NCBI GenBank assembly: GCA_965198115.1 | Contig: OZ240241.1 | Location: 38,323 to 102,322 of the forward strand | Length of the DNA stretch: 64,000 nt | Reading direction: 5' to 3' | Origin: Candidatus Latescibacterota bacterium | GTDB taxonomy: Bacteria; Latescibacterota; UBA2968 | Shown here: in pieces, positions 1,028-31,067 of the stretch | Layout of the letters: every line of letters starts with the position of its first letter | Position numbering within the stretch: the first letter of the stretch is position 1 | Program-made: the position numbers and the translations under genes | The notes under the pieces: generated by a model | What the model was told of the DNA's origin: nothing | Database searches by the model: none | Seen by the model: the letters and a program-made list of their open reading frames with translations, nothing else

Positions 1028-2674
1028 ATGAATCTGCTCGCAATTAACTTCAATCACGACGGATCTGCTGCTTTGATGTGCGATGGTGTGATAACCGGGT
1101 TTGTCAATACGGAGAGATTTTCGCGAAAGAAAAAGCAACCAGGAATCCGAGAATGTGATATAGATGAATTACTCGGGCAGGGAGGTATACGTATTGACGA
1201 GATTGACGGCGCCTTGATGTGCAACCTGAATAACATGGATTCCCCGGACATCCCTAGGCTGTACGGAACAGATCTCAAAGAAGAGTGGCTTGGATTCGAA
1301 GTGGATCCTGATCAACGACATGTGACGATAAGGGGAAACCGAATCCGCTGTAAAGTGAATCCAGATCACCACTTGCTCCATTGCGCCCTGGCGTTTTACA
1401 CGTCACCGTTCGATTCTGCAATGGTCTTCTCATCGGATCCCGTGGGTTGGGCATCTTACGTGGGTAAAGGCCACGAGATGAGAGGAGTCCAGAACGTCCC
1501 TGGTCAGTTCAACGCGCCAGAGCTTTATAGTAGGGTTGCCGAGTCCCTGTTTGGTACAGGGATTATGGGAGCAGGAAAGGTAATGGGGCTCGCCCCTTAC
1601 GGGTTTCGAGAGTTGGATCTGGACTATGCTCAATTATCAGATGTCAGGACTACTATATCGCTTTATCGAGCCTTACGGAAACTTGGCATAGGCAGGGTGG
1701 TAGTCCAGGAAGATGAAAAAGCATATAATGCTAGTCTTGCATACCACACACAGGAGATTCTCGACTTTCAGTTAATCTCCATCCTCAAAGAGTTACACGA
1801 GGTTTCGGTGCAGGAAGGTGTTGATCCGAATCTATGCTTGGGAGGGGGAACGGCTCTCAATTCCGTCGCGAATCAGAAGGCGTTCAGCCACAGCCCGTTC
1901 ACAGATCTTTTCTTGCATCCCGCGTGCGGAGATGACGGTACTACACTTGGGGCAGTTCTCTGGCACTGGCATCACGTGATGAAGAATCCTAGGAGGAACT
2001 ACTTAAACACCGACCTTATGTACACGAAAAAATGCTATCGAAGTGATCAGGTAGATGCCGTTCTGTTGTCAGGGAAGTATCGAAACCATCTTACTGTCTG
2101 GAAGCATCCTGATCCTCTCCCGACGGTTGCTCGGATGATCAGCTCTGGCGCGATTGTAAGTCTGTTCGAGGGAGGAAGCGAAATTGGACCTCGTGCTCTT
2201 GGTCATAGAAGCATAATAGCAGATCCCCGTCGGCTGGGGATGCGGGATCAATTGAACGTAAAGGTAAAACATAGAGAAGCCTTTCGCCCGTTTGCCCCAG
2301 CAGTAATACAAGAACACTCCAGTTCGTGGTTTGATCTAAATTATAGCCCATTCATGTTACGGGTTGCGAATGTATTGAGGCCCAAAGAAGTCCCATCTAT
2401 CACACACGTGGATGGCACCGCGCGCATCCAAACGGTCGGCCCTAATGACGATCAACGATTCCGAAAGTTGCTTGAACACTTCTACTCAATGACGGGAGTT
2501 CCTGTTCTTCTCAATACGTCCTTCAACATTAGAGGTGAACCCATAGTAGAAACGCCTGAGGACGCAATAAGTGCGCTACTACGGTCCGAAATGGACTGTG
2601 TCGTCTTTAGTGACTGCATCGTGCAAAAGAGAGACGGTGGTGATAAGTCCGCTTCCAGTTGTGTCGCCGATTGA
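1028..2674 (+). CDS. NodU/CmcH-family carbamoyltransferase
   Basis: 548-aa ORF. The N-terminus LLAINFNHDGSAALMCDGVITGFVNTERFSRKKKQ matches the family hallmark (ILG..FHDSAAAL..DG.IVAA..EERFSRKK). The C-terminal half has HVDGTARIQTV and LNTSFN motifs typical of the carbamoyltransferase C-domain. A GGAG-like RBS precedes the ATG. Confidence 0.85.
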   Translation: MNLLAINFNHDGSAALMCDGVITGFVNTERFSRKKKQPGIRECDIDELLGQGGIRIDEIDGALMCNLNNMDSPDIPRLYGTDLKEEWLGFEVDPDQRHVTIRGNRIRCKVNPDHHLLHCALAFYTSPFDSAMVFSSDPVGWASYVGKGHEMRGVQNVPGQFNAPELYSRVAESLFGTGIMGAGKVMGLAPYGFRELDLDYAQLSDVRTTISLYRALRKLGIGRVVVQEDEKAYNASLAYHTQEILDFQLISILKELHEVSVQEGVDPNLCLGGGTALNSVANQKAFSHSPFTDLFLHPACGDDGTTLGAVLWHWHHVMKNPRRNYLNTDLMYTKKCYRSDQVDAVLLSGKYRNHLTVWKHPDPLPTVARMISSGAIVSLFEGGSEIGPRALGHRSIIADPRRLGMRDQLNVKVKHREAFRPFAPAVIQEHSSSWFDLNYSPFMLRVANVLRPKEVPSITHVDGTARIQTVGPNDDQRFRKLLEHFYSMTGVPVLLNTSFNIRGEPIVETPEDAISALLRSEMDCVVFSDCIVQKRDGGDKSASSCVAD

Positions 2675-2737
2675 GAAAGTACCTACCTTTGTCTCCTTTC
2701 TCCGATGCGGCTCTTTCGAATTTCTGGCGAAACGAGA

Positions 2738-3568
2738 TTAAGTTGAAGTCTCAAGAAGTTCTGGGATCTTAGTAGTTAGTCGGTCAAGGGGTTTCAAAAG
2801 GTTGGAGGCCTTTAGGAATTCAACGAATATAGTTCGGTTCACTGCGTTTACGAAGTTTTCGGTAACAGCCAGACTCGTTTCTAGATTCCGTACTTGGTGC
2901 CACCACAGACTTGGTATATATATGATCTCCCCTGGCAGCTGTTTGCAATAGTAGGGGTTGGCCTTCTCAATCCTCTCTGGGTTGGTATCGAAAGCGTCAA
3001 TACATTCCAGTCCGAGGTGTTCAACCTTCCCTGGGGGAAAGATCATCCACTCCTTAGCACCGCTGATTAGCGCCAGCCATGCAGCTGTGTGCCACACATC
3101 ATTGTGAAGGGGGGAGCCTGAGCCGGCTGGACCTAAGAAGATCCATTTCCAGCTAGGTCGTCGGTCTAGTGGGTATATGTCTAGCCAATTGCTCAAATAA
3201 TGCGGAACCGTGTAGTGCTTCAGCAACTCAGGATGTCTCTTCTCAATGCTCCAATTTTTCAGATATAGTGTGCGACTGTCGGTCCTTTCCTCTATGTAGT
3301 CTATGTAATCGGCCACCGGCATTGTGGATGTTTCTTCCACCACGCCCATCCCTTGGGCCCCTGGCTTCTGATCTGTGACATTAACAACGAAGCTGCCGAA
3401 TTTATCCCTTAAGAAGTCAAGGCTCCAGGTCTGCATGGCTTGCCATTGTCCAGCCTCCCCTCGTATGATTGCAGGTTTCGAGGTATTTCCGAACCTGGCC
3501 ATGAATTCCCCCGATGATTTTTTACCCTTACCCTCAAGGACCTCAACGGAATTGGGCTCTATCTCCAT
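2738..3568 (-). CDS. JmjC / cupin-8 Fe(II)/2-oxoglutarate oxygenase (paralog 1)
   Basis: WKWIFLGPAGSGSPLHNDVWHTAAWLALISGAKEWMIFPP supplies the HxD facial-triad motif. WWHQVRN supplies the distal His. I place the start at ATG 3568 (MEIEPNSV...) because a GGAGG lies 6 nt upstream. The ORF track extends to GTG 3595. It is a paralog of 22017..22853. Confidence 0.8.
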   Translation of the reverse strand: MEIEPNSVEVLEGKGKKSSGEFMARFGNTSKPAIIRGEAGQWQAMQTWSLDFLRDKFGSFVVNVTDQKPGAQGMGVVEETSTMPVADYIDYIEERTDSRTLYLKNWSIEKRHPELLKHYTVPHYLSNWLDIYPLDRRPSWKWIFLGPAGSGSPLHNDVWHTAAWLALISGAKEWMIFPPGKVEHLGLECIDAFDTNPERIEKANPYYCKQLPGEIIYIPSLWWHQVRNLETSLAVTENFVNAVNRTIFVEFLKASNLLKPLDRLTTKIPELLETST

Positions 3569-3691
3569 GGTTACCTCCAATTCAGGGGCATTCACACCTT
3601 GCCCGGAGAGCTATGATTAATAGGGTGTGGAAAAAGAGAAAGGGCGACCCTGCACTTCCCGTGAGATAGTCCTATTCACGAAACACCGGGT

Positions 3692-4213
3692 GTGAGGCGA
3701 AGGAGGATCGCCGTGAGAGAACATACGCATAAAGCCTCGATGAAGTCTATCCCGACGTGGGAGACGGTTGATGATTGGATCCGTGAAGAGATCCAGGTCC
3801 GTTTCCAAGGGATTCTGGAAGAAGAAGCGACCGCGTTCTTGGGCCGGTCGTGGTATGAGCGACGACCGGAAGTCGATAGCCCTGGAGGTTACAGGAACGG
3901 CTACGGTAAGCCCCGGCGTCTCTCGACGAGTTGTGGGACGATCGAGGTCAGGCGTCCTCGGGTTCGGGGTCTGGAGGAGCGGTTTGAAAGCCGTATCCTC
4001 CCGCTGTTCGCTCGGAGAACCAAGGCGGTTGGGGATCTGCTTCCCGACCTCTACCTCCACGGACTGGCCCAAGGTGATTTCGAGCTCTCCTTACGTGCCC
4101 TGCTCGGTGAAGGTGCACCGCTGTCGCCAACCTCGATCGCTCGTCTGCGCGGCAAATGGGAGACCGATTTCCAGGACTGGAAGGAACGACGTCTGGATGA
4201 CCACGAACTGGTT
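3692..4213 (+). pseudogene. IS256-a' transposase, N-terminal half (interrupted)
   Basis: ...IAVREHTHKASMKSIPTWETVDDWIREEIQVRFQGILEEEATAFLGRSWYERR...WKERRLDDHELV is colinear with residues 1-170 of the 416-aa transposase at 22947..24197. Homology stops at the nested insertion point, 4213/4214. Confidence 0.8.
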
Positions 4214-5603
4214 GGTGTTGTGCCTATCGTAGTTGAAACTTAGAGGGCTCCAAACTTACGTTGGGTAGACGTGTAGGAGCGTATACCCGTAAGAAAGGAG
4301 CCCAGATGGAGAAGCTATTTGTAGGCGATGGTGAAGTCAAGGTTGAGGGCGATGTCATCGATTTGGAGACGCGTTTGTCGGTGATCCAGGCGTTGATCCC
4401 GTTGGGTCTGGAGGCAGTGGCAGACCTCCTCCAGCAGGAGGTCGAGCAGCTCGCAGGCGTTCGGTATGCGCGCAAAGGTTCGGAGCAGGCGCATCGTCGG
4501 TGGGGAAGCCATAAGGGATCCGTGTATCTGATGGACCAGAAGCTCCCGTTAGACGTTCCCCGGGTGCGCGACGTCGAGGCCGACGCAGAGGTTTCCCTGG
4601 CTGCACACCGGGCTCTACAGACGCCCAAGAAGACGGACGAGGGGCTGTTGCTTCGTGTTCTCAAAGGGGATCTCGTGCCGCAACTACAAGGCCTGTGCCG
4701 AATCGGTTCCAGAAGCGTTTGGTATCTCAGCGTCCTCCGTCTCGCGGCGGTTCATCAAAGCCACCGCGAAGAAGCTGAAGCAGTTCCAGGAGCGTCCCCT
4801 CGACGACTACGGCTTCGTGACCCTGTTCATTGACGGAAAGAGCTTTGCCGACGAAGAGATCGTGATCGCTCCGGGGGTCACGATGGACGGCCAGAAGATC
4901 CCCCTGGGCTTCGTCGAATCGGCGACGGAGAACGAACGGATCTGCCGCCAGCTGATCCAGGACCTCATCCGGAGAGGCCTGTGCTACGACCAGGGCCTTC
5001 TCGTTGTGCTTGACGGCTCAAAGGGACTCCGCAGTGCTGTCACCAAAGCCCTCAAAGGGTATGTGCGCGTGCATCGCTGTCAGTGGCACAAGCGCGAGAA
5101 TGTCGTCAGCGATGTCGAGGAGTGCGGCCGCCACCCATCTGTGTTTCTGGGGAGAGTTGTTCCAGCGTCTGACCTTCCGAGTGAGCTCGCCGGTCATGCT
5201 GTTGAGGGCTTCGATGCAGTTGGTGGTTCGGAAGCTTCGTTTCAGGAATGGGAGCATACCCAGCCGGTGGAGGGTCAGGGTTTCCTCCAGGCCTTCCTCG
5301 AGGCTCGTTACGGCAGACTGATTCATCAGCTTCAGTTCGGGTTTAAGTGATTCGAGTGCAGCCTTTGCCTCCTCGTAGGTGTCGCAGTCATAGGCTTTCT
5401 GGAGCTTCCGTCGAACTCTTGGACGTTCCCTCTCCGGGAGATAGCGAACCTCGCCTGCGACGCGTGAGCGGATACAAACATCTTCCCCTACTCAGGCAAG
5501 CACTGAACAAAGATCTGAATCTCGACAACGAACAGAATACTCGGCAGAGAGCCTGACCAAACTACGGGGCCCGATGAGTTTCAACTGACTATGGGACTTG
5601 ACC
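4214..5603 (+). mobile_element. IS256-b, complete-length copy nested inside IS256-a'
   Basis: The terminal inverted repeats are GGTGTTGTGCCTATCGTAGTTGAAACT and (rc) GGTCAAGTCCCATAGTCAGTTGAAACT. A perfect 8-bp TSD AACTGGTT sits at 4206..4213 and 5604..5611. It contains an internal inverted segment, 5111..5443. Confidence 0.85.
4261..5556 (+). pseudogene. IS256-b transposase, frameshifted and disrupted by an internal inversion
   Basis: ORF 4261..4833 (...LLLRVLKG) continues in the +1 frame (ISCRNYKACAESVPEAFGISASSVSRRFIKA...) across an AAAGGGG run. After ...CQWHKRENVVS the sequence becomes the reverse complement of the downstream coding block (minus ORF 5018..5326 reads MNQSAVTSLEEGLEETLTLHRLGMLPFLKRSFRTTNCIEALNSMTGELTRKVRRW...). 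Confidence 0.8.
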
Positions 5604-6338
5604 AACTGGTTTACGCTTGCCCGATGGCATCTATGTCAAAGCCGGACTCGAGCGCGACAAGGCGTGTCTGCTGGTCGTTATCGGCGCGATGAGCGACGGC
5701 AGCAAGGAGATCCTCGCACTGGAACCGGGCTATCGAGAGTCCACCGAATCCTGGCTCTCGGTTCTTCGAGATCTCCGAGACCGTGGGCTTGAACATCCTG
5801 TTCTTATCGGACGGGAACATGGGCATCTGGGCCGCCATAGACCAGGTCTGGCCGGAGAGCCGACAGCAACGATGCTGGAACCACAAGATCCTTAACGTGC
5901 TCGACAAGATCGCCAAGCGCTCACAAGCCGAAGCCCGGGCGTTGCTTATACAGATCCCGTATGCGAATACGCGAAGAGACGCCGAGAAACTCCGGGAAAC
6001 GCTTTGCCGCACGATATCGCTCACAGTTTCCTGCTGCCGTGGACGCGCTCGAACGGGACTGGGATCGAATGGTCACGTTCTACGACTTCCCGAAGAAGCA
6101 TTGGAAACACCTGAGAACCACAAACGTCGTCGAGAGCCCTTTTGCTTCCGTTCGACTCCGCACAAACGCCGCCAAGAGGTTCAAGAAAGTCACAAGCGCA
6201 ACGGTTCTCATCTGGCGAACACTCTTGGTCGCAGAAAGCCAATTCAGGAAACTTGACGCCCCACACCTACTTCAAAACATCTATGATCAGAAACACGCAA
6301 CCAATCCCCAGATCGCTACGGGAAAGCTGGCCGCCTGA
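5604..6338 (+). pseudogene. IS256-a' transposase, C-terminal half, with further frameshifts
   Basis: Resumes ...DGIYVKAGLERDKACLLVVIGAMSDGSKEILALEPGYRESTESWLSVLRDLRDRGLEHPVLI. It then changes frame several times (ORFs 5617..5895, 5783..6256, 5961..6338) and ends ...HLLQNIYDQKHATNPQIATGKLAA, colinear with 22947..24197. Confidence 0.75.
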
Positions 6339-6388
6339 TTTCTTTTACACACCTCTTGACCTGAACTCTTGCCCGGACGTATATTTTC

Positions 6389-7807
6389 GGCTATATCCGG
6401 ATCTCTCAACGAGATGAAGTGGGTGAAGGTGCCGTGGTTCCTGGCATGGGGGCGCGGTTAGCGTGTGCGGAACCTCTTCGGAATCTGCTCAGGGATGTTT
6501 ATGTCTCCGACGGTAAGGAAGATCATATCGTTGAATGCGTCGAGTGTGCGGAATCCGCTGGCTCGGTTCTTGACGATTTGGACGATTCGGTTGAGGCCTT
6601 CGGCGATGGCGTTGGTAAGACGCGTGTTCACGAATGCGAGGACGCCGAAGAAGTGCTGTCGCAGGGTCCTGACGAACTTTCGCAGGGGTTCAAGTCGACT
6701 TCTGAGTGCGGACGTCGTCCAGCATTTCAGGAAGCGTTCGGCAGCCCAGGGCGCTTTGTATTCCCAGAACTGCTCGAACTCGTCCTTGAGTCTCCAGGCT
6801 CTATAGATTCGGTAGTTCGCCTTCTCCAGTGCTTTGAGTGTCCGAGTATCCCCTCTGGAGCGTGTCGCTGAGTGCCGGTAGAGGAGCCATCGGAGGCCCT
6901 TCATGGCTTTGCGCTCATCCGGGGCAGCTTTACGCCACTGGTCCTTACGGACCTCGTCAACGGCGGCATTGAGAGCCTTGACGATGTGAAAGCGATCGAG
7001 GACCAGCTTGGCATTCGGACAGTGTTCCTGGATGGCTCCGATGTAAGCTTCGCTCATGTCGCAGCAGGCCCACTCGATCTTGGATCTCCGGTAGGGACTG
7101 AGAGCCTCTGTGAAGAACCGATCGATCGTTTTACGCGCCCTGCCGCGGCCAACCCACACCACGCAGGAGCGGTCCAGATCGTAAACGAGCGTGGCGTACC
7201 TGTGACGCTTGGCGTAGGAGATCTCGTCGATCCCGATGGTTTTGAGCCCTCGGATACGATGACCTTCACGAAGCCGCGTGATGGATCGGTGAAGGAGATC
7301 CGACAGCGTCGAGGCAGAGATGCGCAGTAACTCGGACGCCGCCTTCTGCGTCATGGTCTGGCAGTAGCGCAGCATGGCATACTCGAAGCGATACGTCACC
7401 CGAGAGAACCGCTCCGCCCACGGAATCTCCTCGACCACACGACCGTGGGTAGGACACCGAATCTCCCGAGGATGGTAGAGAAGCCAGACCCTCCACCCGC
7501 ACACCGGAATGTCACGCCACCGACGCGGATGGGGCATTGTGCGGACGATTTTACCTCGACGGCCGCACTCCGGACAACAACAACCATTCTTATGTGGCTT
7601 TACGGCGATGACAAACAGCTTCTCCCCTCAAACCACCAGCTGACAACACGGAACCCCTTGAATCTCAGCAGTTTCGATAGTAATCTGCTCCCGGTCATAG
7701 GTCGCACCCCCTTCGCTTTGATTGTCCTACACACACAACCAAGCGTAGGGAACGATCTATGACCTTGTCATTCTATAGTTTCACCGTTGAGAAACCCGGA
7801 TAGAGCC
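6389..7807 (-). mobile_element. ISL3-family IS, copy A (1419 bp)
   Basis: The ends are GGCTATATCCGGATCTCTCAACG and (rc) GGCTCTATCCGGGTTTCTCAACGG. A perfect 8-bp TSD ATATTTTC sits at 6381..6388 and 7808..7815. Confidence 0.9.
6458..7734 (-). pseudogene. ISL3-family transposase with a 1-bp deletion
   Basis: Same protein as 12014..13291, but GATGACGAAACAG is GATGACAAACAG here (about 7610). This cuts the ORF to 359 aa and removes the N-terminal zinc-ribbon-like CCCPECG region from the frame. Confidence 0.85.
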
Positions 7808-8023
7808 ATATTTTCACTATGAGCTATACTTTGCTTGCGATGATGGCGGCACGTAGACCGTGGAATAGCATATGGCAACAGGAGTGCACAAATAGCCAAA
7901 AGGACATCTCATTGTGAGCTGTATGATGGAACCTTGCTGGAGGGAGTCTGGTTCCAGCGAATCCTACCTTCAGGATTTCGACAAGGTTCTCAGGCGGCAG
8001 CAGTGCATAGGAATTAGAAATTC

Positions 8024-11871: not shown

Positions 11872-11944
11872 AGCCCTATAAAGAAGTTTGCAAAGTGACA
11901 GGCGCACCTTAGATTATAGCTGCATTTGCAATATGAAAATATAT

Positions 11945-22016: not shown

Positions 22017-22853
22017 ATGGAAAACACATTAGATGTTGTTAGACGGCCAGACGTTTCGCCGGAAACATACTTGAAACTATATGGGAAACCGAACAAACCA
22101 TTTGTCATTGCGGATGGCGCAGAGGAATGGAAGGCCCGATCAACCTGGAACATGAGATTCTTTGAAGAGCGTTATGGAGATGTCAGACTGCAGGTGACAC
22201 GGATAGCGAGAGGGAGAACGGAATCCGCTGGTGTAAAGACCATAGCTGAATACGCAGACTACCTCCGCACTCAGAACCATGAAAAGGAGCCACTCTATCT
22301 CCGAGATTGGGTCCTGGAAGAGAAGTACCCTGAGCTTCTTTCTCACATCTCCGTGCCTTCCTATCTATGCAACTGGCTTGACCGTATCCCGATTAGCGGC
22401 AGTCGTAGACACTTCTGGCGAGGTTGGAAAGGTTGGATTTTCATCGGCCCAAAAGGAACTGGAACTGAGCTCCATACGGACGTTGTTAAATCCTCGGCCT
22501 GGCTGGCCCTCATAAGTGGACAAAAGGAGTGGGTATTAACCCCACCTAACGAACACGATCCAGCCACGTTTGCTAAAGTCGACCTGCTAAATCCTGACTA
22601 TGAAGCCTATCCCTTCCTTCGGAATTCGAAGAGGATCTGCTACACCCAGCGTCCAGGAGAACTATTAGTCGTCCCGAGTGGATGGTGGCATCAGGTCTGT
22701 AACTCTGATGCCACCATCTCTGTTTCTGGGAACTTCATAAATGAATCCAACATACACTTCTTCTGTAAGGACTTGCTTGAGAACGGATCACTTGCTGAAC
22801 TCAGAGACTACTCATGCTACATTCCAGAGATAGTCCCCTTTTTAGCATCCTAG
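22017..22853 (+). CDS. JmjC / cupin-8 Fe(II)/2-oxoglutarate oxygenase (paralog 2)
   Basis: WKGWIFIGPKGTGTELHTDVVKSSAWLALISGQKEWVLTPP (HxD) and GWWHQVCN. I chose ATG 22017 because GGAGG lies 8 nt upstream. The track start TTG 21978 overlaps the ABC gene. The stop TAG lies inside the IS256-a TSD. Confidence 0.8.
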   Translation: MENTLDVVRRPDVSPETYLKLYGKPNKPFVIADGAEEWKARSTWNMRFFEERYGDVRLQVTRIARGRTESAGVKTIAEYADYLRTQNHEKEPLYLRDWVLEEKYPELLSHISVPSYLCNWLDRIPISGSRRHFWRGWKGWIFIGPKGTGTELHTDVVKSSAWLALISGQKEWVLTPPNEHDPATFAKVDLLNPDYEAYPFLRNSKRICYTQRPGELLVVPSGWWHQVCNSDATISVSGNFINESNIHFFCKDLLENGSLAELRDYSCYIPEIVPFLAS

Positions 22854-22854
22854 G

Positions 22855-24227
22855 GAGCTATAATCAAAAGGTGTGGAAAAGAGAAAGGGCGACCCTACCC
22901 TTCCCGTGAGATAGTTGATTCACACAAAACCGGGTGAGAGGCCCGGTTGGGAAGGAGGATCGCCGTGAAGGAACATACGCATAGAGCCCCATTGAAGTCC
23001 ATGCCGACGTGGGAGACGGTTGACGATTGGATCCGTGAAGAGATCCAGGGCCGGTTCCAGTCCATTCTGGAGGAGGAGGCGACCGCGTTCTTGGGCCGGT
23101 CGTGGTATGAGCGCCGAGCCGAGGTTGATAGCTCCAGGGGCTACAGGAACGGCTACGGCAAGCCCCGGCGTCTCTCGACGAGCTGCGGAACGATCAAGGT
23201 CCGGCGTCCCCGGGTTCGTGGTCTGGAAGAGCGGTTTGAAAGCCGCATCCTCCCCCTGTTCGCCCGGAGAACCAGGGCCATTGGAGATCTGCTTCCCGAC
23301 CTTTATCTCCACGGTCTCTCCCAGGGCGACTTCGAGTTGTCTTTGCGTGCGCTGCTCGGTGATGGCGCGCCGCTTTCGCCGACCTCGATCGCTCGTCTTC
23401 GAGGGAAGTGGGAGGTCGACTTCCAGGACTGGAAAGAAAGGCGTCTGGATAATCGCGAACTGGTCTACGCCTGGGCTGATGGCATCTACGTCAAAGCCGG
23501 GCTCGAGCGCGAGAAGGCGTGTCTGCTGGTCGTGATCGGCGCGATGAGCGACGGCAGCAAGGAGATCCTGGCGATAGAACCCGGTTATCGAGAGTCTACA
23601 GAATCCTGGCTCACGGTGCTCCGGGATCTCCGGGATCGCGGGCTCGAACATCCTGTCCTGATCGCCGCGGACGGGAATATGGGCATCTGGGCGGCCGTTG
23701 ATCAGGTCTGGCCAGAGAGCCGGCAACAACGGTGCTGGAACCACAAGATCCTCAACGTGCTCGACAAGGTCGCCAAGCGTGCACAGGCTGAAGCCCGCGC
23801 ACTGCTCGTCCAGATCCCCTATGCCGGCACGAAAAAGGAGGCCGAGAAGCTCCGGAAACGCTTTGCCGCACGGTATCGCTCACAGTTCCCTGCCGCCGTG
23901 GAGACGCTCGAAAGAGACTGGGATCGGATGGTCACGTTCTACGACTTCCCGAAGGAACACTGGAAACACCTGAGAACCACGAACGTCGTCGAGAGCCCCT
24001 TTGCTTCCGTTCGGCTTCGCACAAACGCCACCAGGCGATTCAAGAAAGTCAGGAACGCCACGACTCTCATCTGGCGTACGCTCAAGGTCGCAGAGAGCCG
24101 ATTCAGGAAACTCACCGCGCCACACTTGCTACAACAAGTCTACGATCAGAAACACTCAACCGGACCGCAGGTCGAAGCCGGGAAGATGGCCGCCTGATTT
24201 CTTTTACACACCTATTGACCTGAGCTC
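22855..24227 (+). mobile_element. IS256-family IS, type a (IS256-a), copy 1
   Basis: The inverted repeats are GAGCTATAATCAAAAGGTGTGGAAAAGA and (rc) GAGCTCAGGTCAATAGGTGTGTAAAAGA. A perfect 8-bp TSD ATCCTAGG sits at 22847..22854 and 24228..24235. Confidence 0.9.
22947..24197 (+). CDS. IS256-family (mutator-type) transposase, 416 aa
   Basis: A single uninterrupted ORF with typical IS256 blocks: ...YERRAEVDSSRGYRNGYGKPRRLSTSCGTIKVRRPRVRG..., ...DGIYVKAGLEREKACLLVVIGAMSDGSKEILA..., ...QRCWNHKILNVLDKV..., ...HLRTTNVVESPFASVRLRT... Confidence 0.92.
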   Translation: MGRRIAVKEHTHRAPLKSMPTWETVDDWIREEIQGRFQSILEEEATAFLGRSWYERRAEVDSSRGYRNGYGKPRRLSTSCGTIKVRRPRVRGLEERFESRILPLFARRTRAIGDLLPDLYLHGLSQGDFELSLRALLGDGAPLSPTSIARLRGKWEVDFQDWKERRLDNRELVYAWADGIYVKAGLEREKACLLVVIGAMSDGSKEILAIEPGYRESTESWLTVLRDLRDRGLEHPVLIAADGNMGIWAAVDQVWPESRQQRCWNHKILNVLDKVAKRAQAEARALLVQIPYAGTKKEAEKLRKRFAARYRSQFPAAVETLERDWDRMVTFYDFPKEHWKHLRTTNVVESPFASVRLRTNATRRFKKVRNATTLIWRTLKVAESRFRKLTAPHLLQQVYDQKHSTGPQVEAGKMAA

Positions 24228-24383
24228 ATCCTAGGATCGATCTGAGCCTACTGGATTCCGAAAGATCTCTACGTGAAGCGTCGATTGCATTTGTGTCCCA
24301 CACGAGTCCAGAATCGGTTTCGTTCAGAGTCGAGGGCCAACGAGTTGGCGAGCATGTTGACCTTCTAACTCGAGAGTATATTA

Positions 24384-26291
24384 GTGAGTGTCAAAGTAGC
24401 TGTCATAGACAGTGGGCTGTGCGAGTCCCATCCCAAGTTAAAAGGGGTACGCGTCACGGACCGCGTGTCGGTAGGAAGCGACGGGATTTCTCGAGGATGT
24501 ACCAGCGATGTTTGGGGACACGGTACGGCCTGCACGCAGATAATTCACAGTGTTCTGGATAGAGAGCTTCGTAGGAGTTGTGAGTTCAAGATCGTAAAGG
24601 TTTTTGATCGCCAACTGGTGGTTAGTCAGGACATCCTTCTAAAAGCCCTCCTGTGGTGTATGGATTCGGGCGTAGACGTAATTAGTGTGAGTATCGGCGT
24701 TCGGGCGTCCTCGCCTCCCCAAGAGCTTGTGGACCTCTGTCTTGAGGCACATTCGAAAGGCATCATACTAGTAGCGCCAGACCACAACGAAGGGGATGGC
24801 CCATGCTACCCAGCGTCACTTTCGCATGTCTTTGGCGTTACAGGCGGAGTTTTGAGATCACGGCGTGAGTTTGGTGTTAACGAGGAGAGCGATATTGAGT
24901 TCGTTGGTCGGGGAACCAATCAACGTGTGGCGTGGATCAATGACTCCTACATCTTCGACAGCGGGACAAGCTTTGCCTCTGCGCAACTAGCAGGAATAGT
25001 GTGCAATGTAAGAGCGCAGTTTCCAGAATCTGATCCGTCAGAATTGAAAGCACACCTCATGTCAATTGGACTTAGAGGTGTGCCTATTACCAGCAGGTTT
25101 GTCTCTGCCGGAACAGGCACCGGCCGCTGGGCGCCCCAGGGGACAGACACGATTGAAGAGGTGGTCGAGCGGAATTTTTCACCCAAAAGATTCAGCTGGA
25201 TGCGACGCGCTGCTCTCTATCCAGTATGTAACAAAGAATTTCACGCGATCGAGCACTTCAGTAGGCAATGCCAGTTTGAGCTTGTGGAAATTCTGGACTT
25301 TCCAAAGGGAGTGATTTCCCACCGAGATATTGAGATCGATGGAAGGAAATACACGAAAAAGTGGCGAGTAAGTGATATTGAAAGGTCGTTTGATACCCTC
25401 ATTGTTGGATATCCATACGAGACGCCCTTTGGCGCTGATCACAAGGCCTATAAAGACATCTTAGACCAGGCCTGGCATACGGAGTGCAACTTCTTTTGTC
25501 TTAGCGGCGATGTAGAGAAACAATTGCAAAAGGAAAGGGACAGCCTCGGTAAGGTGTCGTCACAGATTTACTGTCCAAGGGTTGACACAGCTGACCTTCA
25601 ACGACTTGCGTGTCTCCAAAGTGAAGGTGAGACAACAAGACCGGTTCTCGCAGTAGTGGGGACAAATGAAAAGCAGGGCAAGTTCTCGCTTCAGTTGCGT
25701 ATAAAGAAGGTCATGGAAGATGCAGGATATGAAGTAGGTTGGCTATCCACCGAGCCGCAAGGTGAGCTTTTCGGCGCCTCGTTTGCATTTCCGTATGGTT
25801 ACAATGGAACGGTCGCTCTCAATCCGCACGACTGGCCCGTAGCCGTCTCGTGCGCGATTCGTGGGATAGAAATGGCCGGTAGCCCAGACATCATTATCAC
25901 GGGCCATCAATCAGGTCTACTGCCCTACACCAGAGGAAATTTGGCGGACATCTATCTGCAACACTTGACATTCCTGAGTGGCTGTCGCGCTGATGCCGCT
26001 GCGTGCGTGATAAGTCCAGAAGATGACATCAGGACAGTCGAGGATGTTATTGGTGTCCTGCAACATCTCCTGCGAGTCCCGGTGCTCTTTTTCGCACTGC
26101 ATCGAAACGTGAGATCACTTGGGACTCTGGACAGTGGGAAGAATTATGTAAAAGTAAGGAGATTGAAGGAGGCAGAGTGGCAGGAACGCGCGAGGGAACT
26201 TAGGTCTCGGTTCGGCATTCCTGTAATTGATTCTCACAGTGAACATTATGACAGTGACATACTTCGAGCAGTGGAGGACTGTTTTGCCTGA
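24384..26291 (+). CDS. fusion protein: N-terminal S8 subtilase domain + C-terminal DUF1611-like (DgcN-like) domain
   Basis: The S8 catalytic triad contexts are VAVIDSGL (Asp), HGTACTQII (His) and SGTSFASAQLAG (Ser), within residues 1-230. Residues ~400-600 contain LAVVGTNEKQGKFSLQLRI and ITGHQSGLLPY. These resemble the DUF1611 P-loop-like GT....GK motif and its GQGS..HP block. The GTG start has a weak RBS. Confidence 0.7.
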   Translation: MSVKVAVIDSGLCESHPKLKGVRVTDRVSVGSDGISRGCTSDVWGHGTACTQIIHSVLDRELRRSCEFKIVKVFDRQLVVSQDILLKALLWCMDSGVDVISVSIGVRASSPPQELVDLCLEAHSKGIILVAPDHNEGDGPCYPASLSHVFGVTGGVLRSRREFGVNEESDIEFVGRGTNQRVAWINDSYIFDSGTSFASAQLAGIVCNVRAQFPESDPSELKAHLMSIGLRGVPITSRFVSAGTGTGRWAPQGTDTIEEVVERNFSPKRFSWMRRAALYPVCNKEFHAIEHFSRQCQFELVEILDFPKGVISHRDIEIDGRKYTKKWRVSDIERSFDTLIVGYPYETPFGADHKAYKDILDQAWHTECNFFCLSGDVEKQLQKERDSLGKVSSQIYCPRVDTADLQRLACLQSEGETTRPVLAVVGTNEKQGKFSLQLRIKKVMEDAGYEVGWLSTEPQGELFGASFAFPYGYNGTVALNPHDWPVAVSCAIRGIEMAGSPDIIITGHQSGLLPYTRGNLADIYLQHLTFLSGCRADAAACVISPEDDIRTVEDVIGVLQHLLRVPVLFFALHRNVRSLGTLDSGKNYVKVRRLKEAEWQERARELRSRFGIPVIDSHSEHYDSDILRAVEDCFA

Positions 26292-26544
26292 TGGTACGGA
26301 CAACATCAGGGGGAAGTTGGTCGAATTAAGCAAGGAGTTTATGCCTGACTCTTCGATTGTCGACGATACGGAGAGACTCATCGTAATTGGATCAGAATCT
26401 GTTAGGGCGATCGAGTTTCTCATGGCAATCGAGGATGAGTTCGAGATTGAGATAGAAGATGACGCGCTTACTCCCGATTTTTTCTCCGACTACACATTTA
26501 TCTGCAAGGCAGTGGAAGAAGCCCTCGAAGTCTCACCTGAGTGA
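26284..26544 (+). CDS. acyl-carrier-protein-like small protein
   Basis: The 86-aa version starts at TTG 26284, with GGAGG 7 nt upstream, and overlaps the upstream stop by 8 nt. It has a four-helix ACP-like pattern: ...IRGKLVELSKEFMPDSSIVDDTERLIVIGSESVRAIEFLMAIEDEFEIEIEDDALTPDFF.... A Ser sits in GSES at the position of the canonical DSL phosphopantetheine site. The track gives 26227..26544. Confidence 0.6.
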   Translation: MPDGTDNIRGKLVELSKEFMPDSSIVDDTERLIVIGSESVRAIEFLMAIEDEFEIEIEDDALTPDFFSDYTFICKAVEEALEVSPE

Positions 26545-26559: not shown

Positions 26560-27438
26560 ATGGTTCGGACATTTATTGTCGAAGAGCACAATGAGGCGTT
26601 CTTGGTTTGGAGTCGAGCAATTTCTGCTGGTCTCATACCAGCCACCGGGAACGAGCTAGTTCACGTTGACCAACATTCAGATCTTGATGCGCCAAGGCTA
26701 AAGAGATCTGTGAAAGACACTATGGATGACGATGAGCTACTGGAGTTTGTCTTTCGTGATCTAAGGATCGGAACCTTCATCATTCCAGCTGTCTACCTGG
26801 GGTTGTTTAACTCGATTCAATGGGTCAAGAAACGCCACAATTTGGAGACCCAGAAAACGTTATTTGTCCGATCTTACAACACTTCTGGAAAGAAACTCAT
26901 CATACAAGATGAACTTCCACTAGGGATCGATCTCACAGATGATGACGTGCAGTCTTTTCAGCTTATTCGTCAGAATGTCGAGAACCTTGAGTGCACAAAC
27001 GATGCCGTTCTAGACATAGACTTGGATTACTTCTCAGCCGAGGAAAACCCGGCGGAACGCACGGACTGCGTTGCCGAGATAACTCGAGAAGAGTACTGGT
27101 CATTCCACAACGACAGATATCACCAGATTAACTATCTCGGACCAATCGTGGAAGCGGTAGAGAAGAACGGGAGATACTTTTACACCTTCAACATGTTCGA
27201 TGAGATCTACCCCTCGCGTCTGGCTGTTGATGATGGGATCATTCAGCAGAGAGTTGAAGAACTCATCGAAGTACTCTCAAGAATCGAGCTTGTTCCTAAA
27301 TTGATAACCATATGTCGTTCTGTGAAGAGCGGCCACACACCCTCCAGCCAGGGCCAACTGATTGAAACTATGGTGCTCAAAGGGCTTAGAGCATTGTACG
27401 AGATCGACCCACAGATGGTCGACGACTCACTCGCATAG
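26560..27438 (+). CDS. UPF0489 (C5orf22-like) family protein
   Basis: TFIVEEHNEAFLVWSRAISAGLIP...ELVHVDQHSDL, IGTFIIPAVYLGLFNSIQWV, VLDIDLDYFSAEENP and PKLITICRSVKSGHTPSSQGQLIETMVLKGLRALY run in parallel with the conserved blocks of eukaryotic UPF0489/C5orf22 as I remember them (VVEDH.EVL...HFDSHPDL; IENWIMPAVYAGH; VLDIDLDFFS; TIARSS...). Confidence 0.7.
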   Translation: MVRTFIVEEHNEAFLVWSRAISAGLIPATGNELVHVDQHSDLDAPRLKRSVKDTMDDDELLEFVFRDLRIGTFIIPAVYLGLFNSIQWVKKRHNLETQKTLFVRSYNTSGKKLIIQDELPLGIDLTDDDVQSFQLIRQNVENLECTNDAVLDIDLDYFSAEENPAERTDCVAEITREEYWSFHNDRYHQINYLGPIVEAVEKNGRYFYTFNMFDEIYPSRLAVDDGIIQQRVEELIEVLSRIELVPKLITICRSVKSGHTPSSQGQLIETMVLKGLRALYEIDPQMVDDSLA

Positions 27439-27599: not shown

Positions 27600-28098
27600 G
27601 GTAAGCCCCCGGCTCTGCCGGGGAGACTCCCAGTGTTTGACAATTCCGGGAAATAGACAAGAGCCTTCCGATTCCGTGGACCGCTCAAAGCTCACGGAAG
27701 GAAGGCTCTCAATGAACGACCTTCAGAGTCTACGTCACACGGTATGGGAGTGCAAGTATCACGTTGTTTTGGGTTCCGAAGTATCGGAGAAAGTCTGTAT
27801 GCGGAGCTTCGCCGGTATCTGGGAGAAGCTTTCCGCGATCTTGCCAAGGCAGAGGGAATCTCGTGTTGAAGAAGGTCATCTGCGTCCGGATCACGTGCAC
27901 ATGTTGATTTCGATCCCGGCCGAAGCACTCAGTAGCTCAGACGGTAGGGTTCATCAAAGGAAAGAGTGCGATCCACATTGCTCGGAACTACCTGGGACGT
28001 AGTTCGAACTTCACGGGGCAGCATTTCTGGGCAAGAGGCTACTGGGTCTCCACCGTTGGTAAGGATGAACAAATGGTTCGGGAGTTATATCCGGATGT
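27600..28098 (+). mobile_element. IS200/IS605-family element, degenerate
   Basis: The left-end hairpin is GGTAAGCCCCCGGCTCTGCCGGGGAGACTC. It is followed by a Y1 transposase reading MNDLQSLRHTVWECKYHVV.../...PKYRRKVLYAELRRYLGEAFRDLAKAEGI.../...EEGHLRPDHVHMLISIP.../...GFIKGKSAIHIARNYLGR..NFTGQHFWARGYWVSTVGKDEQMVREYI, spread over three frames. Confidence 0.75.
27712..28098 (+). pseudogene. tnpA: IS200-type TnpA (Y1 transposase), at least three frameshifts
   Basis: See the element entry. The HUH region (HVHML) and the catalytic-Tyr region (ARGYWVSTVG) are recognisable but out of frame with each other. Confidence 0.75.
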
Positions 28099-28130
28099 CC
28101 GGCGTCAACCATTCTTCCCGCCGTGTTGCC

Positions 28131-29736
28131 TCACGTAGTAATGTTACCAGGTACAGAAGCTGCTGCATCAGACTCCGATTTGCTGGTGTCGGAGAGAGTG
28201 TACTGGGGCGCCCCGGGTTCCAGATTGGCCCCACCGAAGATAAGTTTCCGGGCCATCGTACGGCGCCAGTCCCGTACCCGACGCTGTAGAGTGCGGAGTT
28301 GGCCGGGGGTGTACGTAGAGGGGTACTCCTGCTGAAGCCGCTCGAGGAGGGATTTGGCCGTTGCGTCGGGCTCCTCGACTAACCACCCTTCCACCACGGG
28401 CCATACCGAGACGAAGGGATCCAGACGCGTACGCCAGTGACGGCCTGAGGCCGGGGGCAGTCGGTGTGTTGGCCGGGCTTCTCCCCCGCGCCACAGGGTG
28501 GGCAATTGTGATAGAAAGAGGGCAAGGTCGTCGTCGGTTGAGGACCCTTCAGTCGCTTCGTCCGGCGCAGAGAGCCGGGTTAGCGCGGACTGTGCTAAGC
28601 GGATCTCGTTAAGGAGCTGTAGGGGGTCCAACGAGGCCGAGAGTTCCTGAAGTCCTCGGATCTGGTCGTCCGCGATGTATTCGGATGCCAACAATCGCTG
28701 GCAAGGGGTGGCCGGCGGATAGTAGTGCTTGATCACCTTGGCGCCCTGTCGGCTCTTCTCCTTGAGCTTGAAGGAGAGGGCTGGAAGCAGTTCACGCGTA
28801 GAGCCGGGAAACAGAGTAGAGACGGGACAGCGTCTGCGTGGCCTTGACCCCCTTCAAGCGCCCATACCCGACCAACCGCCGCACTACAGCCCCATTCTTC
28901 TGCTCGACCCAGGCCTGGTCATTCTTGCGATAGGGGCGCGAACGTGTCTGAGTGAGTCCTGCGTCTCTAGTGTACGTGAGCAGGCTATCGTTGATGAAGG
29001 CGCCGTCGTTGTCCGTATCCAGACCTATCAATGCGAAGGGAAGTTGGCCACGTACCATCTCCACGGCTTCTACGACCAAGCCCTGCTCTCGCACGAGCAG
29101 TGGCAGGCACTCCGTCCAGCCCGAAGCGATGTCGGTCAACACCAGAGTATGGACGCAACTGCCCTCGCTGTTGCCGCCGTTGTGGGCCACAAAGTCGGCT
29201 TCCATGAACCCAGGCCGTGGGTCGACCCAATCGCTGAAGGTGCGCACCGGAATCTGGCTACGCACAAGCCCATTGGACTGACGGCGCCTGCGGCGGTCCG
29301 AGGTGGCAGCCCGCTGTGGCGCCAGGAGCCTATCGATCGTAGCCGCGCTGATGCTCAGCAGGAGCTCTCTCAGTTTGGCACCTAGAACCAGGTGACCATG
29401 CCGCTCCAAGGCCCCCACCAAGACCAGCATGAGGGCCTTGAGGCGCTTGCTGCAGATCCGGTCAGCTGACTCCCACACGATGATGAGAGCCTCATGCACT
29501 GCCTCGTCGTAGATCCGAGAGCGAGGACGGCCCGAGCGGCGGTAGCACGTTTCACCACCGTTGAGAAGCCTCAGGGCGTGTTTGCGATGGTAGCCCGTCA
29601 GGGCCACGAACTCATCCAAAATCCTGCGCTTCTCGCCGCTTGAAGCCACCCGATATCGGCGTCCAACTTCCACCACGAGCTCCCGTTTGGTCGCCATGCT
29701 GATGCTCCTCGCCATTTCTGCTCCCGCGAAAGACAA
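28131..29736 (-). pseudogene. DDE integrase-core transposase (IS481/ISNCY-like), interrupted by a stop and frameshifts
   Basis: ORF 28792..29736 has an HTH-like N-terminus and an rve-type core: ...DFVAHNGGNSEGSCVHTLVLTDIASGWTE...LDTDNDGAFIN...RPYRKNDQAWVEQKNGAVVRR.... Homology continues past a TGA and frame changes into ORF 28131..28736 (...FKLKEKSRQGAKVIKHYYPPATPCQRLL...). Confidence 0.65.
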
Positions 29737-29969
29737 AGGGGGTAGCAGAATATGTGAGGCAACGACCCCTCAGGGGTAGCAGAAACCCTGAGTCAATGCG
29801 GGTGGGAGTTCTAATTGTCGCTAATCAATCCAGAACCAGGAGCGGGAAGACCAGCGTCTCGACCAGTCTCAACATCTTCAGATAATCGCCCCCTTTAGGT
29901 GGCGCACACGGTCTTAAACCGCTTTGAGCGGTTCACAAGTTTTTCAAGCCTCCAGCTTTGCCGGAGGTC

Positions 29970-31067
29970 ATGACTACAGTGAAAGTGGATGATGGGGGGG
30001 ACATTTTGCAGGTGATGGTCGACATCCATTTAGATCCACCGATACGCACCTGGACCTACCACGCGTTTCGAATGTCAGTTTTAGGGAAGGGTCGTTTCTT
30101 TCGACCGTGGATCCTAAGCAATTTCATCCAGATGTGCTGTCGAGATTTGAGTGACTTCTCTTGGGAATCCTTAGAGGTGTACGAAGCCTATCTTGATGTA
30201 CCGTATGGGTATAACTTCTTTTGTCCTGAAAAGTTCTACAATGCAGCGGGCTTGGTACAGCATTCAGTTGATAGAAACCTGTTTAGCGAATGGACCGATG
30301 GAAGGCTGGCAGAATTCGTTTGTAGATCCATTGACCGCGGCTTCTGTTTTTACACATACCTCAACTATCAGTCCGTGCTCAGAGAGGGGAACACACCGAT
30401 TCATCCATCGAAAAGTAACCATGGGACAATGATATGTGGCTATGATAAAAGTAAACGTGCATTCGCGATTTTGGGCTATGAATCCGGGAGCTATGGTCTT
30501 TCTTGGGTGGACATTAACCTCGTAGAAAGCGCGTACCAAGAGACCTACCTTGAATCGATGAGCAGAGCCCATCAGACCATCTGGCTATTGGGCAGAGACG
30601 ATACTCCTTATTGGTTTAGCTTGGAAAAGGTGGCAGGACAGCTTCGTGACTATCTCGACTCTCAGAACAGGCTTGGATTCGGAAGCCTTCTTGTTCAGCA
30701 GCCATCGTCACTATGTTATGGGTTGGAGACCTATGAGACGGGTCTCATTGGGCACTTAGGTGTAGTTCAGGAGAGGCCCAAACTCCTCTACTATCATCTT
30801 TTCCACGCTCTTAAGGAGCACAAGGCGCTGATGCTCGAAAGAATTCAACACCTCAATCATATGCGGATTGTTGATCATAGGATAGTGGAGGAATACTCCT
30901 CGATCTTCAGATGGGCTGAAAATGTCAGAATGGTAATGCTAAAGTTCAGGATGAGACCAAGGAAAAAGACGCCAGATCGAATGATCAATAGATTGCGGGA
31001 AATGGCTGAGAAGGAGGCGGAGGTATTGGAAAAGACTTACCAAGCGATAAGTCAAGTGGGGGAATAA
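29970..31067 (+). CDS. hypothetical protein (365 aa), weak papain/transglutaminase-like His motif
   Basis: I chose ATG 29970 because GGAGG lies 5 nt upstream. SNHGTMICGYDKSKRAFAILGY resembles the catalytic-His strand of papain-fold enzymes (H..V.GYD). I recognise no other family motif. Its low GC matches the cluster genes. Confidence 0.5.
   Translation: MTTVKVDDGGDILQVMVDIHLDPPIRTWTYHAFRMSVLGKGRFFRPWILSNFIQMCCRDLSDFSWESLEVYEAYLDVPYGYNFFCPEKFYNAAGLVQHSVDRNLFSEWTDGRLAEFVCRSIDRGFCFYTYLNYQSVLREGNTPIHPSKSNHGTMICGYDKSKRAFAILGYESGSYGLSWVDINLVESAYQETYLESMSRAHQTIWLLGRDDTPYWFSLEKVAGQLRDYLDSQNRLGFGSLLVQQPSSLCYGLETYETGLIGHLGVVQERPKLLYYHLFHALKEHKALMLERIQHLNHMRIVDHRIVEEYSSIFRWAENVRMVMLKFRMRPRKKTPDRMINRLREMAEKEAEVLEKTYQAISQVGE

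Follow-up and report, generated by a model that had tools for sequence, protein, structure and literature searches.

A gene cluster from a probable divergent four-cysteine sub-clade of the DD(I/V)LF peptide-arginase RiPP family, on a probably foreign genomic island invaded by insertion sequences

One orphan family of peptides that are synthesized ribosomally and modified post-translationally (RiPPs) is characterized by precursors that end in the motif DD(I/V)LF and are encoded next to PF12640 peptide arginases (PMC12703449). In the work that describes this family (Pfeiffer et al. 2025, ChemBioChem; PMC12703449), which builds on Mordhorst et al. 2020 (Angew; its reference 15), experiments in vivo and in vitro showed that the arginases FlmR and OhkR turn core arginines of DD(I/V)LF precursors into ornithine; all of the published precursors (57 of 57) come from Bacteroidetes. 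The flm cluster of Flagellimonas meridianipacifica encodes three precursors, a radical SAM (rSAM)/SPASM enzyme (486 aa), an arginase, an S41 peptidase (653 aa) and an S8 peptidase (638 aa), together with a cupin, hypothetical proteins, a holo-acyl carrier protein (ACP) synthase and an ABC exporter, and the ohk cluster of Ohtaekwangia koreensis encodes three JmjC proteins and one further cupin-like protein, two precursors, an arginase, an S41 peptidase, an rSAM enzyme, an S8 peptidase, a 777-aa ABC permease, a 90-aa hypothetical protein and an ABC exporter (PMC12703449). Here we describe a cluster of thirteen genes within a 64-kb stretch of contig OZ240241.1 (the window, by which we mean the whole stretch analysed). 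Very probably this locus belongs, as a biosynthetic gene cluster, to the peptide-arginase-associated DD(I/V)LF family (flm/ohk type), where it represents a divergent four-cysteine sub-clade, and lies on a compositionally foreign island recently invaded by the host's own insertion sequences (IS) without breakage of any open reading frame (ORF).

Gene identities in the window were based on ORF calls combined with Pfam and NCBIfam scans (Table 1). An earlier note, made from the sequence of the window, had named these thirteen genes and read them as a RiPP-type cluster; all thirteen are present in the ORF list, their coordinates agreeing with those it gave exactly or to a few codons, with twelve of the thirteen on the plus strand and with the tight junctions it described, and Pfam scans confirmed the domains it had named, the last gene being without a Pfam match. 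The RiPP reading itself is supported, and the 47-aa Cys-rich peptide gene is a real ORF with conserved counterparts in seven other loci of the sub-clade. The note's view that the tailoring set matches no described class was not supported, since the DDILF end and the FlmR/OhkR-type arginase are those of the published DD(I/V)LF orphan family. The seemingly unmatched set of JmjC oxygenases, carrier protein, UPF0489 protein, SPASM enzyme and proteases is the standard make-up of that family.

The assignment follows from the DDILF end of a precursor with core arginines, from the score of the arginase model, from the best match of the rSAM enzyme and from the gene tables of the flm and ohk clusters. 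In the precursor, a leader (MKVLKKPVV...ELLYEAL) is followed by the core (DCTEECCRGGCRVRIF) and then by an acidic tail that has DDILF at its end (C-terminus ...TDDILF); arginines are present at R29, R33 and R35. It matches the NCBIfam model NF052472 (FlmA_fam_RIPP) at 14.6 bits (E 0.026; cut-off 30) over its C-terminal 25 residues only. The UPF0489 protein scores 67 bits against Pfam PF12640 (cut-off 27) and 311.9 bits (E 4e-93) against NF052474, 'peptide arginase, FlmR/OhkR family', a near miss of the cut-off of 350. In an alignment the metal-ligand motifs EEHNEAF, DQHSD and LDIDLDYFSA are all present, and the protein matches the OspR structure 8BRP at 4e-50; its nearest relative in a protein search is 42% identical, and the arginases of two related loci (L007 and L009, introduced below) reach 49%. 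By these sequence criteria it is a predicted peptide arginase that would convert Arg to Orn. Genes for S41, S8 and JmjC/cupin proteins and for an ABC exporter co-occur in the window, as they do in DD(I/V)LF clusters.

The rSAM enzyme, encoded next to the four-Cys precursor, carries a CX3CX2C motif at C123/127/130 and seven conserved C-terminal (SPASM) cysteines. Its best NCBIfam match is the FlmE/OhkG family radical SAM/SPASM peptide maturase (NF052473), at 220 bits against a cut-off of 500, with the enzyme of locus L003 reaching 758. Models of other characterized maturase families likewise score below their cut-offs (PapB, NF047865, 106 against 340; SCIFF, TIGR03974, 53.5 against 425), and RumMC was not among the top NCBIfam matches. 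In a neighbour-joining tree of 77 SPASM enzymes (100 bootstraps), the rSAMs of DD(I/V)LF loci are monophyletic (88/100), and within this clade the window sub-clade and the canonical FlmE/OhkG group form separate branches (100/100 each). The nearest relatives of the window enzyme are 46-54% identical, and a protein search of 5.8 billion clusters found only six such sequences. An enzyme related to the anaerobic sulfatase-maturing enzyme (anSME), an affiliation that the earlier note had named as speaking against its reading, was rejected: the anSME model gives 66.7 bits, the top-scoring models of peptide maturases 143-220.

We then compared the cluster with loci collected as the contexts of arginase and rSAM homologues (174 fetched, designated here by L numbers), scoring gene sharing by a tblastn matrix. 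The IS-free syntenic neighbourhoods that the earlier note had suggested seeking were found: three metagenomic loci hold 10-11 of the 13 window genes at 34-70% identity (26% for the FtsX permease of L008). L007 encodes an FtsX permease, three 51-aa peptides, an rSAM, the S8-DUF1611 fusion, an ACP, an arginase, an S41 peptidase, a GT1 enzyme, a formyltransferase and an ABC exporter. L008 runs from FtsX through an AraC protein, four peptides, rSAM, S8-DUF1611, ACP, S41, GT1, ABC exporter, a second GT1 and arginase to JmjC, and L009 comprises JmjC, FtsX, a 47-aa peptide, rSAM and, further along, DUF1611, ACP, arginase, S41, GT1 and ABC exporter. Subsets of the window gene set occur in L171-L174. 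The core set is also found in canonical Bacteroidota-type loci, two of which, L034 (SZAS-47) and L040 (Chitinophaga rhizophila), are on the list of PMC12703449. Across about 70 unrelated SPASM-maturase loci, only generic ABC matches were shared with the window, apart from a GT1 match in L061. A contig profile search with the rSAM alignment, which captures generic rSAM motifs, returned mostly unrelated SPASM enzymes among the matches listed and served as a negative control. A metagenome scan with the arginase alignment recovered canonical-type loci only, with no new sub-clade member and no carbamoyltransferase.

The precursor is conserved in L007, L008, L009, L170, L171, L173 and L174, with 55-71% identity where measured, L171 and L173 sharing one sequence. 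These sub-clade precursors are short (47-53 aa) and align to the consensus MK(V/L)LVKPVV..ELLYEAL.C.E...C.C.G.C(R/K)..R...(D/E)(D/E)ILF, and they combine a minimal leader with a core of four conserved cysteines, whereas most canonical peptides have two cysteines and a C(Y/R)RRN motif. Copy number ranges from two to four in L007 (three), L008 (four), L171 and L174; the window, L009, L170 and L173 have one copy each. A motif scan found 36 peptides with a DD(I/V)LF-type end in 15 of 170 sequences, solely where the gene set is present. Because L007-L009 hold 10-11 of the thirteen genes and L171-L174 subsets of them, because peptides with the motif occur only with the gene set, and because the rSAMs are monophyletic, the proposal of the earlier note that the genes form one functional unit is supported. 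The comparison shows a core for the sub-clade, made up of the peptide and its rSAM, the FtsX permease, the S8-DUF1611 fusion, the ACP-like protein, the arginase, the S41 peptidase and the ABC exporter, and a set of optional genes: JmjC, GT1, formyl- or carbamoyltransferase and a 369-aa protein.

Three further loci are of interest in their own right. In L039 (7369-9460; a Saprospiraceae metagenome-assembled genome, MAG), ten DD(I/V)LF-type precursor genes stand in tandem; their core is hypervariable, whereas their tail, CYRRNRSIE(S/N)EDDILF, is constant. L026 (7559-20347; OZ241838.1) encodes S41, rSAM, FtsX, S8-DUF1611, ACP and ABC exporter proteins, and the fetched range contains no arginase, no JmjC and no DDILF-type peptide. 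In L170 (5718-8454) a sub-clade peptide (...EDVEDDILF) and an rSAM adjoin a CxxCxxCC-domain protein on a 9.5-kb contig that has no S8, S41 or arginase gene; this may be a minimal or relocated peptide/rSAM pair.

Table 1 Cluster genes and insertion sequences of the window, in order of position (TSD, target-site duplication)
Feature	Position	Strand	Remarks	Basis
NodU/CmcH-type O-carbamoyltransferase	1028..2674	+		Pfam Carbam_trans_N/C
JmjC/cupin-8 oxygenase 1 (JmjC1)	2738..3595	-	ATG at 3568 gives 276 aa	Pfam Cupin_8/JmjC
Diverged IS256-type element	3605..6368		Nested second IS256-type element, 4213-5603	Self-BLAST, Transposase_mut fragments, flanking duplications
ISL3 copy a	6389..7808	-	TSD ATATTTTC	
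Duplicated FtsX/MacB-type permease (ADOP/DarB-like)	8024..10405	+	793 aa	Pfam MacB_PCD+FtsX, NCBIfam
IS256-type element	10478..11872		Inverted twin of 4213-5603	Self-BLAST
ISL3 copy b	11945..13367	-	TSD AAATATAT	
Precursor peptide, DD(I/V)LF type	13480..13623	+	MKVLKKPVVAPSEQELLYEALDCTEECCRGGCRVRIFDTDDTDDILF; 47 aa, four Cys, three Arg	ORF
Radical SAM/SPASM peptide maturase	13919..15421	+		Pfam Radical_SAM, NCBIfam
S41 (tail-specific/C-terminal processing type) peptidase	15444..17357	+		Pfam Peptidase_S41, NCBIfam
GT1 (MGT/EryCIII-like, GT28) glycosyltransferase	17415..18647	+		Pfam, NCBIfam
ISL3 copy c	18772..20194	-	TSD AAAATTGA	
ABC exporter, transmembrane domain plus nucleotide-binding domain (TMD-NBD)	20279..21997	+	Without C39 domain	Pfam ABC_membrane+ABC_tran
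JmjC/cupin-8 oxygenase 2 (JmjC2; JMJD6/JMJD5-like)	22017..22853	+		Pfam Cupin_8/JmjC
IS256-type element	22854..24228	+	TSD CATCCTAG	
QhpE-like S8 protease fused to DUF1611/TIGR04066-like domain	24384..26291	+		Pfam Peptidase_S8+DUF1611, NCBIfam
Acyl-carrier-like protein	26284..26544	+	86 aa	Pfam PP-binding
Predicted peptide arginase (UPF0489, PF12640)	26560..27438	+		Pfam, NCBIfam NF052474
IS element (Y1_Tnp-like + rve-like ORFs)	~27600..29945		16-nt inverted ends 27676-27691 / 29921-29936	
369-aa protein without Pfam match	29958..31067	+	ATG at 29970 gives 365 aa	ORF, homologues in related clusters
DDE_Tnp_1 transposase ORF	30939..31751	-	Marks right-hand edge	Pfam
IS256-type copy outside cluster	34897..36272			Self-BLAST
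Fourth ISL3 copy	44936..46362		TSD TTAAATAT	

The remaining proteins of the cluster have features that bear on their possible roles. The two JmjC proteins are 35% identical to each other, both keep an HxD...H triad (HND...H as the iron triad of JmjC1) and both resemble JMJD6, JMJD5, JMJD7 and FIH in sequence matches to the structure database; these enzymes hydroxylate Lys, Arg and Asn side chains of proteins. Homologues of JmjC1 occur in L008, L009, L030, L039 and L090. GT1 orthologues in L007, L008 and L009 are 40-43% identical, and a GT1 gene is also present in L003. The S41 peptidase has a hydrophobic N-terminus, and its orthologues are 36-44% identical; those of the FtsX permease reach 40-45% in L007, L009, L171 and L173. 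Likely counterparts in the described clusters, likened by annotation and size only, are FlmF and OhkF for the S41 peptidase and OhkJ (777 aa) for the permease.

In the S8-DUF1611 protein (orthologues 44-52% identical), the S8 domain carries the triad D9/H46/S196 and has no signal peptide; since it begins at residue 1 and lacks a prodomain, it would be expected to act as a cytoplasmic leader peptidase. Among NCBIfam models the S8 domain matches QhpE best; for the DUF1611 part the match is TIGR04066, 'peptide maturation system protein'. A PDB sequence search with the DUF1611 half gave no meaningful match, and no description of DUF1611 function was found in the literature searched. The acyl-carrier-like protein matches only generic ACP models and has an invariant Ser in the ACP-type motif GSES(V/I)RAIEF. 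The 369-aa protein has full-length homologues inside three related clusters, L174 (35% identity, between rSAM and S8 genes), L026 (26%, fused to about 430 extra C-terminal residues) and L007 (24%), and is thus a recurrent accessory gene. It has no Pfam or NCBIfam match, a PDB search with a profile of three sequences gave no match, and a single-sequence AlphaFold model was set aside at a predicted local distance difference test score (pLDDT) of 34.7. One homologue shows a single weak, sub-threshold match to BtrH_N, which hints at carrier-dependent acyl transfer.

These features suggest a pathway in which the leader would be bound and the rSAM/SPASM enzyme would cross-link the four conserved cysteines, by analogy most likely through thioethers of the ranthipeptide/QhpD kind. 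The arginase, given its intact metal-binding motifs, would hydrolyse core Arg29, Arg33 and Arg35 to ornithine, the two JMJD6/JMJD5-like oxygenases would hydroxylate side chains and the GT1 enzyme would add a sugar; if it belongs to the pathway, the carbamoyltransferase would O-carbamoylate a hydroxyl, most plausibly on the GT1 sugar, in the manner of NovN, TobZ and NodU. The cytoplasmic QhpE-like S8 domain could then remove the leader; the carrier protein and the 369-aa protein, together with the fused DUF1611-like domain, would form a conserved module possibly engaged in carrier-dependent acylation. The ABC exporter would secrete the peptide, an exported tail-specific S41 protease could trim the hydrophobic DDILF C-terminus, and the FtsX/MacB-type permease may serve in efflux or immunity.

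Self-BLAST of the window was used to map its insertion sequences. The earlier note had described each of them as bounded by its own target-site duplication, which held for all four ISL3 copies (perfect, 8-bp, AT-rich) and for the IS256-type copies in the cluster (6-8-bp, some imperfect); none was evident, when looked for, at the IS256-type copy outside the cluster (34897-36272). Identity among the ISL3 copies is 99.0-99.6%. When a plasmid collection was searched with an ISL3 copy there was no DNA match, and transposase matches reached only ~31-33% identity. All seven insertion sites (7/7) are intergenic, in non-IS DNA of which 91.6% is coding, an outcome with a chance of about 0.084^7 under uniform insertion, and the ORFs are intact, with gene lengths equal to those of IS-free orthologues. 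Purely intergenic insertions and intact ORFs suggest a recent invasion or continued selection.

The low GC content reported by the earlier note was recovered at third codon positions (GC3): cluster genes lie at 0.50-0.56, including the carbamoyltransferase (0.50) and the 369-aa protein, with the short peptide gene (0.71) as the exception. Most flank genes lie at 0.66-0.74 (two flank ORFs are lower, 0.56 and 0.58), and the ISL3, IS256 and rve-like transposases at 0.70-0.74, the DDE_Tnp_1 transposase being lower (0.61). With GC3 low in its genes and high in most flank genes and IS transposases, the cluster thus stands out as an island of foreign composition, which host-like IS later invaded and which was probably acquired horizontally. 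The host is probably not a member of the Bacteroidota; the closest named proteins of one flank gene, encoding a short-chain dehydrogenase/reductase (SDR) epimerase, come from Gemmatimonadota MAGs (75-76% identity; a single gene), which tentatively suggests a Gemmatimonadota-like host. Pfam and NCBIfam matches of flank genes carried no taxonomic information.

Several observations weigh against the assignment to the DD(I/V)LF family. Precursor, rSAM and arginase all score below the cut-offs of the family's NCBIfam models, as listed above; the sub-clade rSAMs are on average only 27% identical to the canonical FlmE/OhkG group, no closer than to unrelated SPASM enzymes; the core has four cysteines against two in most canonical Bacteroidota-type peptides; the carbamoyltransferase never co-occurs elsewhere among the 174 fetched loci; the FtsX permease has no ATPase partner nearby; co-expression is doubtful, because seven insertions cut the operon into six or seven pieces; and the family is an orphan for which Arg to Orn is the one pathway step shown. 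The sub-threshold scores, the orphan status of the whole family and the carbamoyltransferase unique to this locus would also fit a radical-SAM RiPP cluster of a class not described before and defined by its set of tailoring genes. We regard this as improbable, given that the DD(I/V)LF/arginase family, with its JmjC, rSAM, S41, S8, ACP-like and ABC proteins, is already published and curated, and that the window precursor has both the N-terminal K.L.KP and the C-terminal DDILF motifs of that family. There is next to no chance that the locus encodes, in place of a RiPP, a cofactor maturation system of the quinohemoprotein amine dehydrogenase (QHNDH) type, in which a small Cys-rich subunit would be the substrate of a QhpD-like rSAM, a QhpE-like protease and a QhpF-like exporter. 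The S8 domain does match QhpE best (115 bits) and the rSAM weakly matches QhpD (56.7 bits), but the respective cut-offs are 165 and 453, no dehydrogenase domain was found among the ORFs scanned (a scan of the window that was not exhaustive), the peptides occur in tandem hypervariable copies typical of RiPP precursors, and the arginase family acts on RiPP precursors.

Within the DD(I/V)LF assignment, the place of the carbamoyltransferase and the present state of the cluster have to be weighed separately. From end to end the carbamoyltransferase can be aligned with the solved relatives GdmN (5e-56), NovN and TobZ, and the odds that it is a member of the pathway are roughly even; as the sole gene without a counterpart in the fetched loci, it is counted as a member on the strength of adjacency and composition. 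The chance that it shares the acquired island with the peptide pathway but takes no part in it falls just short of even. That would explain why tblastn recovered no homologue from the 174 fetched loci, about 25 related ones included, and would fit the 4.2 kb of IS DNA between this gene and the rest, the action of all its solved relatives on small molecules, and a window that begins only 1 kb upstream of it, leaving its real neighbours unseen. Its GC3, however, fits the cluster and not the host, it lies on the cluster's strand and adjoins JmjC1, which has cluster homologues, and GT1 and carbamoyltransferase genes are a common pairing in natural-product pathways. L007, the closest IS-free relative, has a Formyl_trans_N/C formyltransferase (18978-19868) between GT1 and ABC exporter, which may represent an alternative one-carbon acyl step to the window carbamoyltransferase. 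As to its state, the cluster could be a silenced or decaying relic in which IS uncouple genes from their promoters and from which this strain makes no product, a possibility that we take seriously though we lean against it. The seven insertions part the genes into six or seven blocks, with three IS lying, respectively, within 10 bp of the JmjC1 start codon, ~110 bp of the precursor gene and ~155 bp of the S8 gene; there is one precursor copy, against 2-4 in L007, L008, L171 and L174 (L009, L170 and L173 also having one), and no ATPase partner for FtsX. On the other hand, every ORF is full length with intact catalytic residues, the insertions all avoid coding DNA (92% of the sequence), a pattern suggestive of selection or of very recent invasion, the ISL3 copies differ little from one another, and IS ends can provide outward promoters.

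Several observations concern mobile and neighbouring DNA in the window. ORF 27637-28002, in the element next to the arginase gene, is IS200-like (Y1_Tnp). A 165-bp direct repeat (27600-27764 / 32608-32771, 88%), containing the IS-end motif GTGGACCGCTCAAAGC, flanks a block made up of that IS, the 369-aa gene and the DDE_Tnp_1 ORF; one possibility is that this block moved as a composite unit. A truncated fragment (32579-33037, minus strand; GDAFGFLDPVYSSG) resembles flavin adenine dinucleotide-dependent oxidoreductases and halogenases and has host-like GC. In L005 a Trp-halogenase gene follows the arginase; the fragment as a lost cluster halogenase of this kind was rejected, for its lack of similarity to the L005 gene and for its host-like GC. 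ORF 36591-37514 (+; GC3 0.555), which lies between IS copies and adjoins a 130-bp inverted repeat (37571-37700 / 37931-38060), has a weak nucleoside 2-deoxyribosyltransferase-like match and may be another foreign passenger gene.

Further along, a 1275-bp repeat (39054-40325 / 58951-60225, 99.4% identity) encodes a DDE_3 (IS630-type) transposase at 39415-40287. Its second copy lies ~130 bp from tRNA-Phe (60358-60433, -) and the fourth ISL3 copy ~30 bp from tRNA-Val (46391-46467, -), so that elements of two different IS families directly adjoin tRNA genes. An Rfam ALIL pseudoknot (RF01497, 104 bits; 43930-44046, +), an IS3-family frameshift signal, adjoins ORF 43975-44778 and marks one more IS type in the window. 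In host-GC DNA, three tandem paralogues of PhyH (phytanoyl-CoA dioxygenase-type; 49453-53079, -) are followed by a sugar-epimerase TIM-barrel gene.

The interest of the locus lies in an orphan family of which, so far, the arginase is the part characterized. To that family the window adds a compact second branch, which probably extends it past the published Bacteroidetes set and whose short precursors would be convenient substrates for working out its chemistry. Together with its IS-free relatives, the window gives a map of core versus accessory genes, a distinct four-Cys scaffold and one unusual extra tailoring gene, and its seven all-intergenic insertions make it a clean example of an invaded yet intact cluster. 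The recurrent DUF1611/ACP module, common also to Firmicutes CcpM cassettes, points to a widespread, unexplained step of RiPP maturation. A bolder proposal, which we consider rather unlikely, would have the four-Cys sub-clade, comprising the window, L007-L009 and L170-L174, produce a structurally new RiPP scaffold that differs from the flm/ohk products. Its compact ornithine core, with several rSAM-made cross-links, would be hydroxylated, glycosylated and, in this strain alone, carbamoylated on the sugar or on a hydroxyl, with the DUF1611/carrier/369-aa proteins performing acyl- or aminoacyl-transfer to ornithine or to the N-terminal amine. If true, this would be a ribosomal route, in a lineage outside the Bacteroidota, to acylated ornithine peptides like those of non-ribosomal peptide synthetases.

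Known systems share parts of this arrangement. In the landornamide and selidamide pathways, PF12640 arginases (OspR and its relatives) likewise put ornithine in a RiPP core, the ornithine of selidamides then being N-acylated. Those pathways use NHLP/proteusin precursors and other partner enzymes (epimerases, GNAT acyltransferases), and we know of no SPASM, S41, S8 or JmjC set reported for them. The logic of sactipeptides and ranthipeptides is a reasonable analogy for the window cluster: ranthipeptide and QHNDH gamma-subunit systems (PapB, CteB, QhpD/QhpE/QhpF) have SPASM rSAMs that act on Cys-rich peptides with neighbouring acidic residues, a QhpE-like prodomain-less subtilase for leader removal and a dedicated ABC exporter. 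They differ in that the window rSAM falls below the PapB, SCIFF and QhpD cut-offs and that no dehydrogenase partners were found among the ORFs scanned. In Firmicutes, a module of rSAM, TIGR04066 protein, ACP-related protein, subtilase and ABC transporter is known (PMC4573289, PMC10731318), and the CcpM-type cassette (TIGR04068, TIGR04066, TIGR04069, subtilase, ABC) matches the window as a five-part module acting on a small Cys-rich peptide. Architecture alone is held in common, the window scoring 63.2 against a cut-off of 500 for TIGR04068 and 43.9 against 200 for TIGR04066; moreover, subtilase and TIGR04066-like protein are fused in the window, and the descriptions of the cassette contain no arginase, S41, JmjC, GT or DDILF (PMC4573289, PMC10731318).

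From the flm and ohk clusters the window differs in its four core cysteines against the typical two, in a minimal leader with its motif from residue 2, in the divergence of its rSAM, in scores below the cut-off of all three family models, in GT1 genes that are frequent across its sub-clade (four out of seven distinct loci), in the extra carbamoyltransferase and in its heavy IS invasion. With those clusters, nonetheless, it shares precursors that have a K.L.KP leader motif, Cys/Arg cores and a C-terminal DD(I/V)LF, as well as a PF12640 arginase, an rSAM/SPASM enzyme ~490-500 aa long, an S41 peptidase with ~640 aa, proteins of the JmjC/cupin type, which number four in ohk, an ACP-like protein of ~90 aa (accompanied in flm by the holo-ACP synthase), an FtsX/MacB-type permease to set beside the 777-aa ABC permease, a TMD-NBD exporter and an S8 peptidase that, judged by its length of 638 aa, is presumably of the fused form in flm too.

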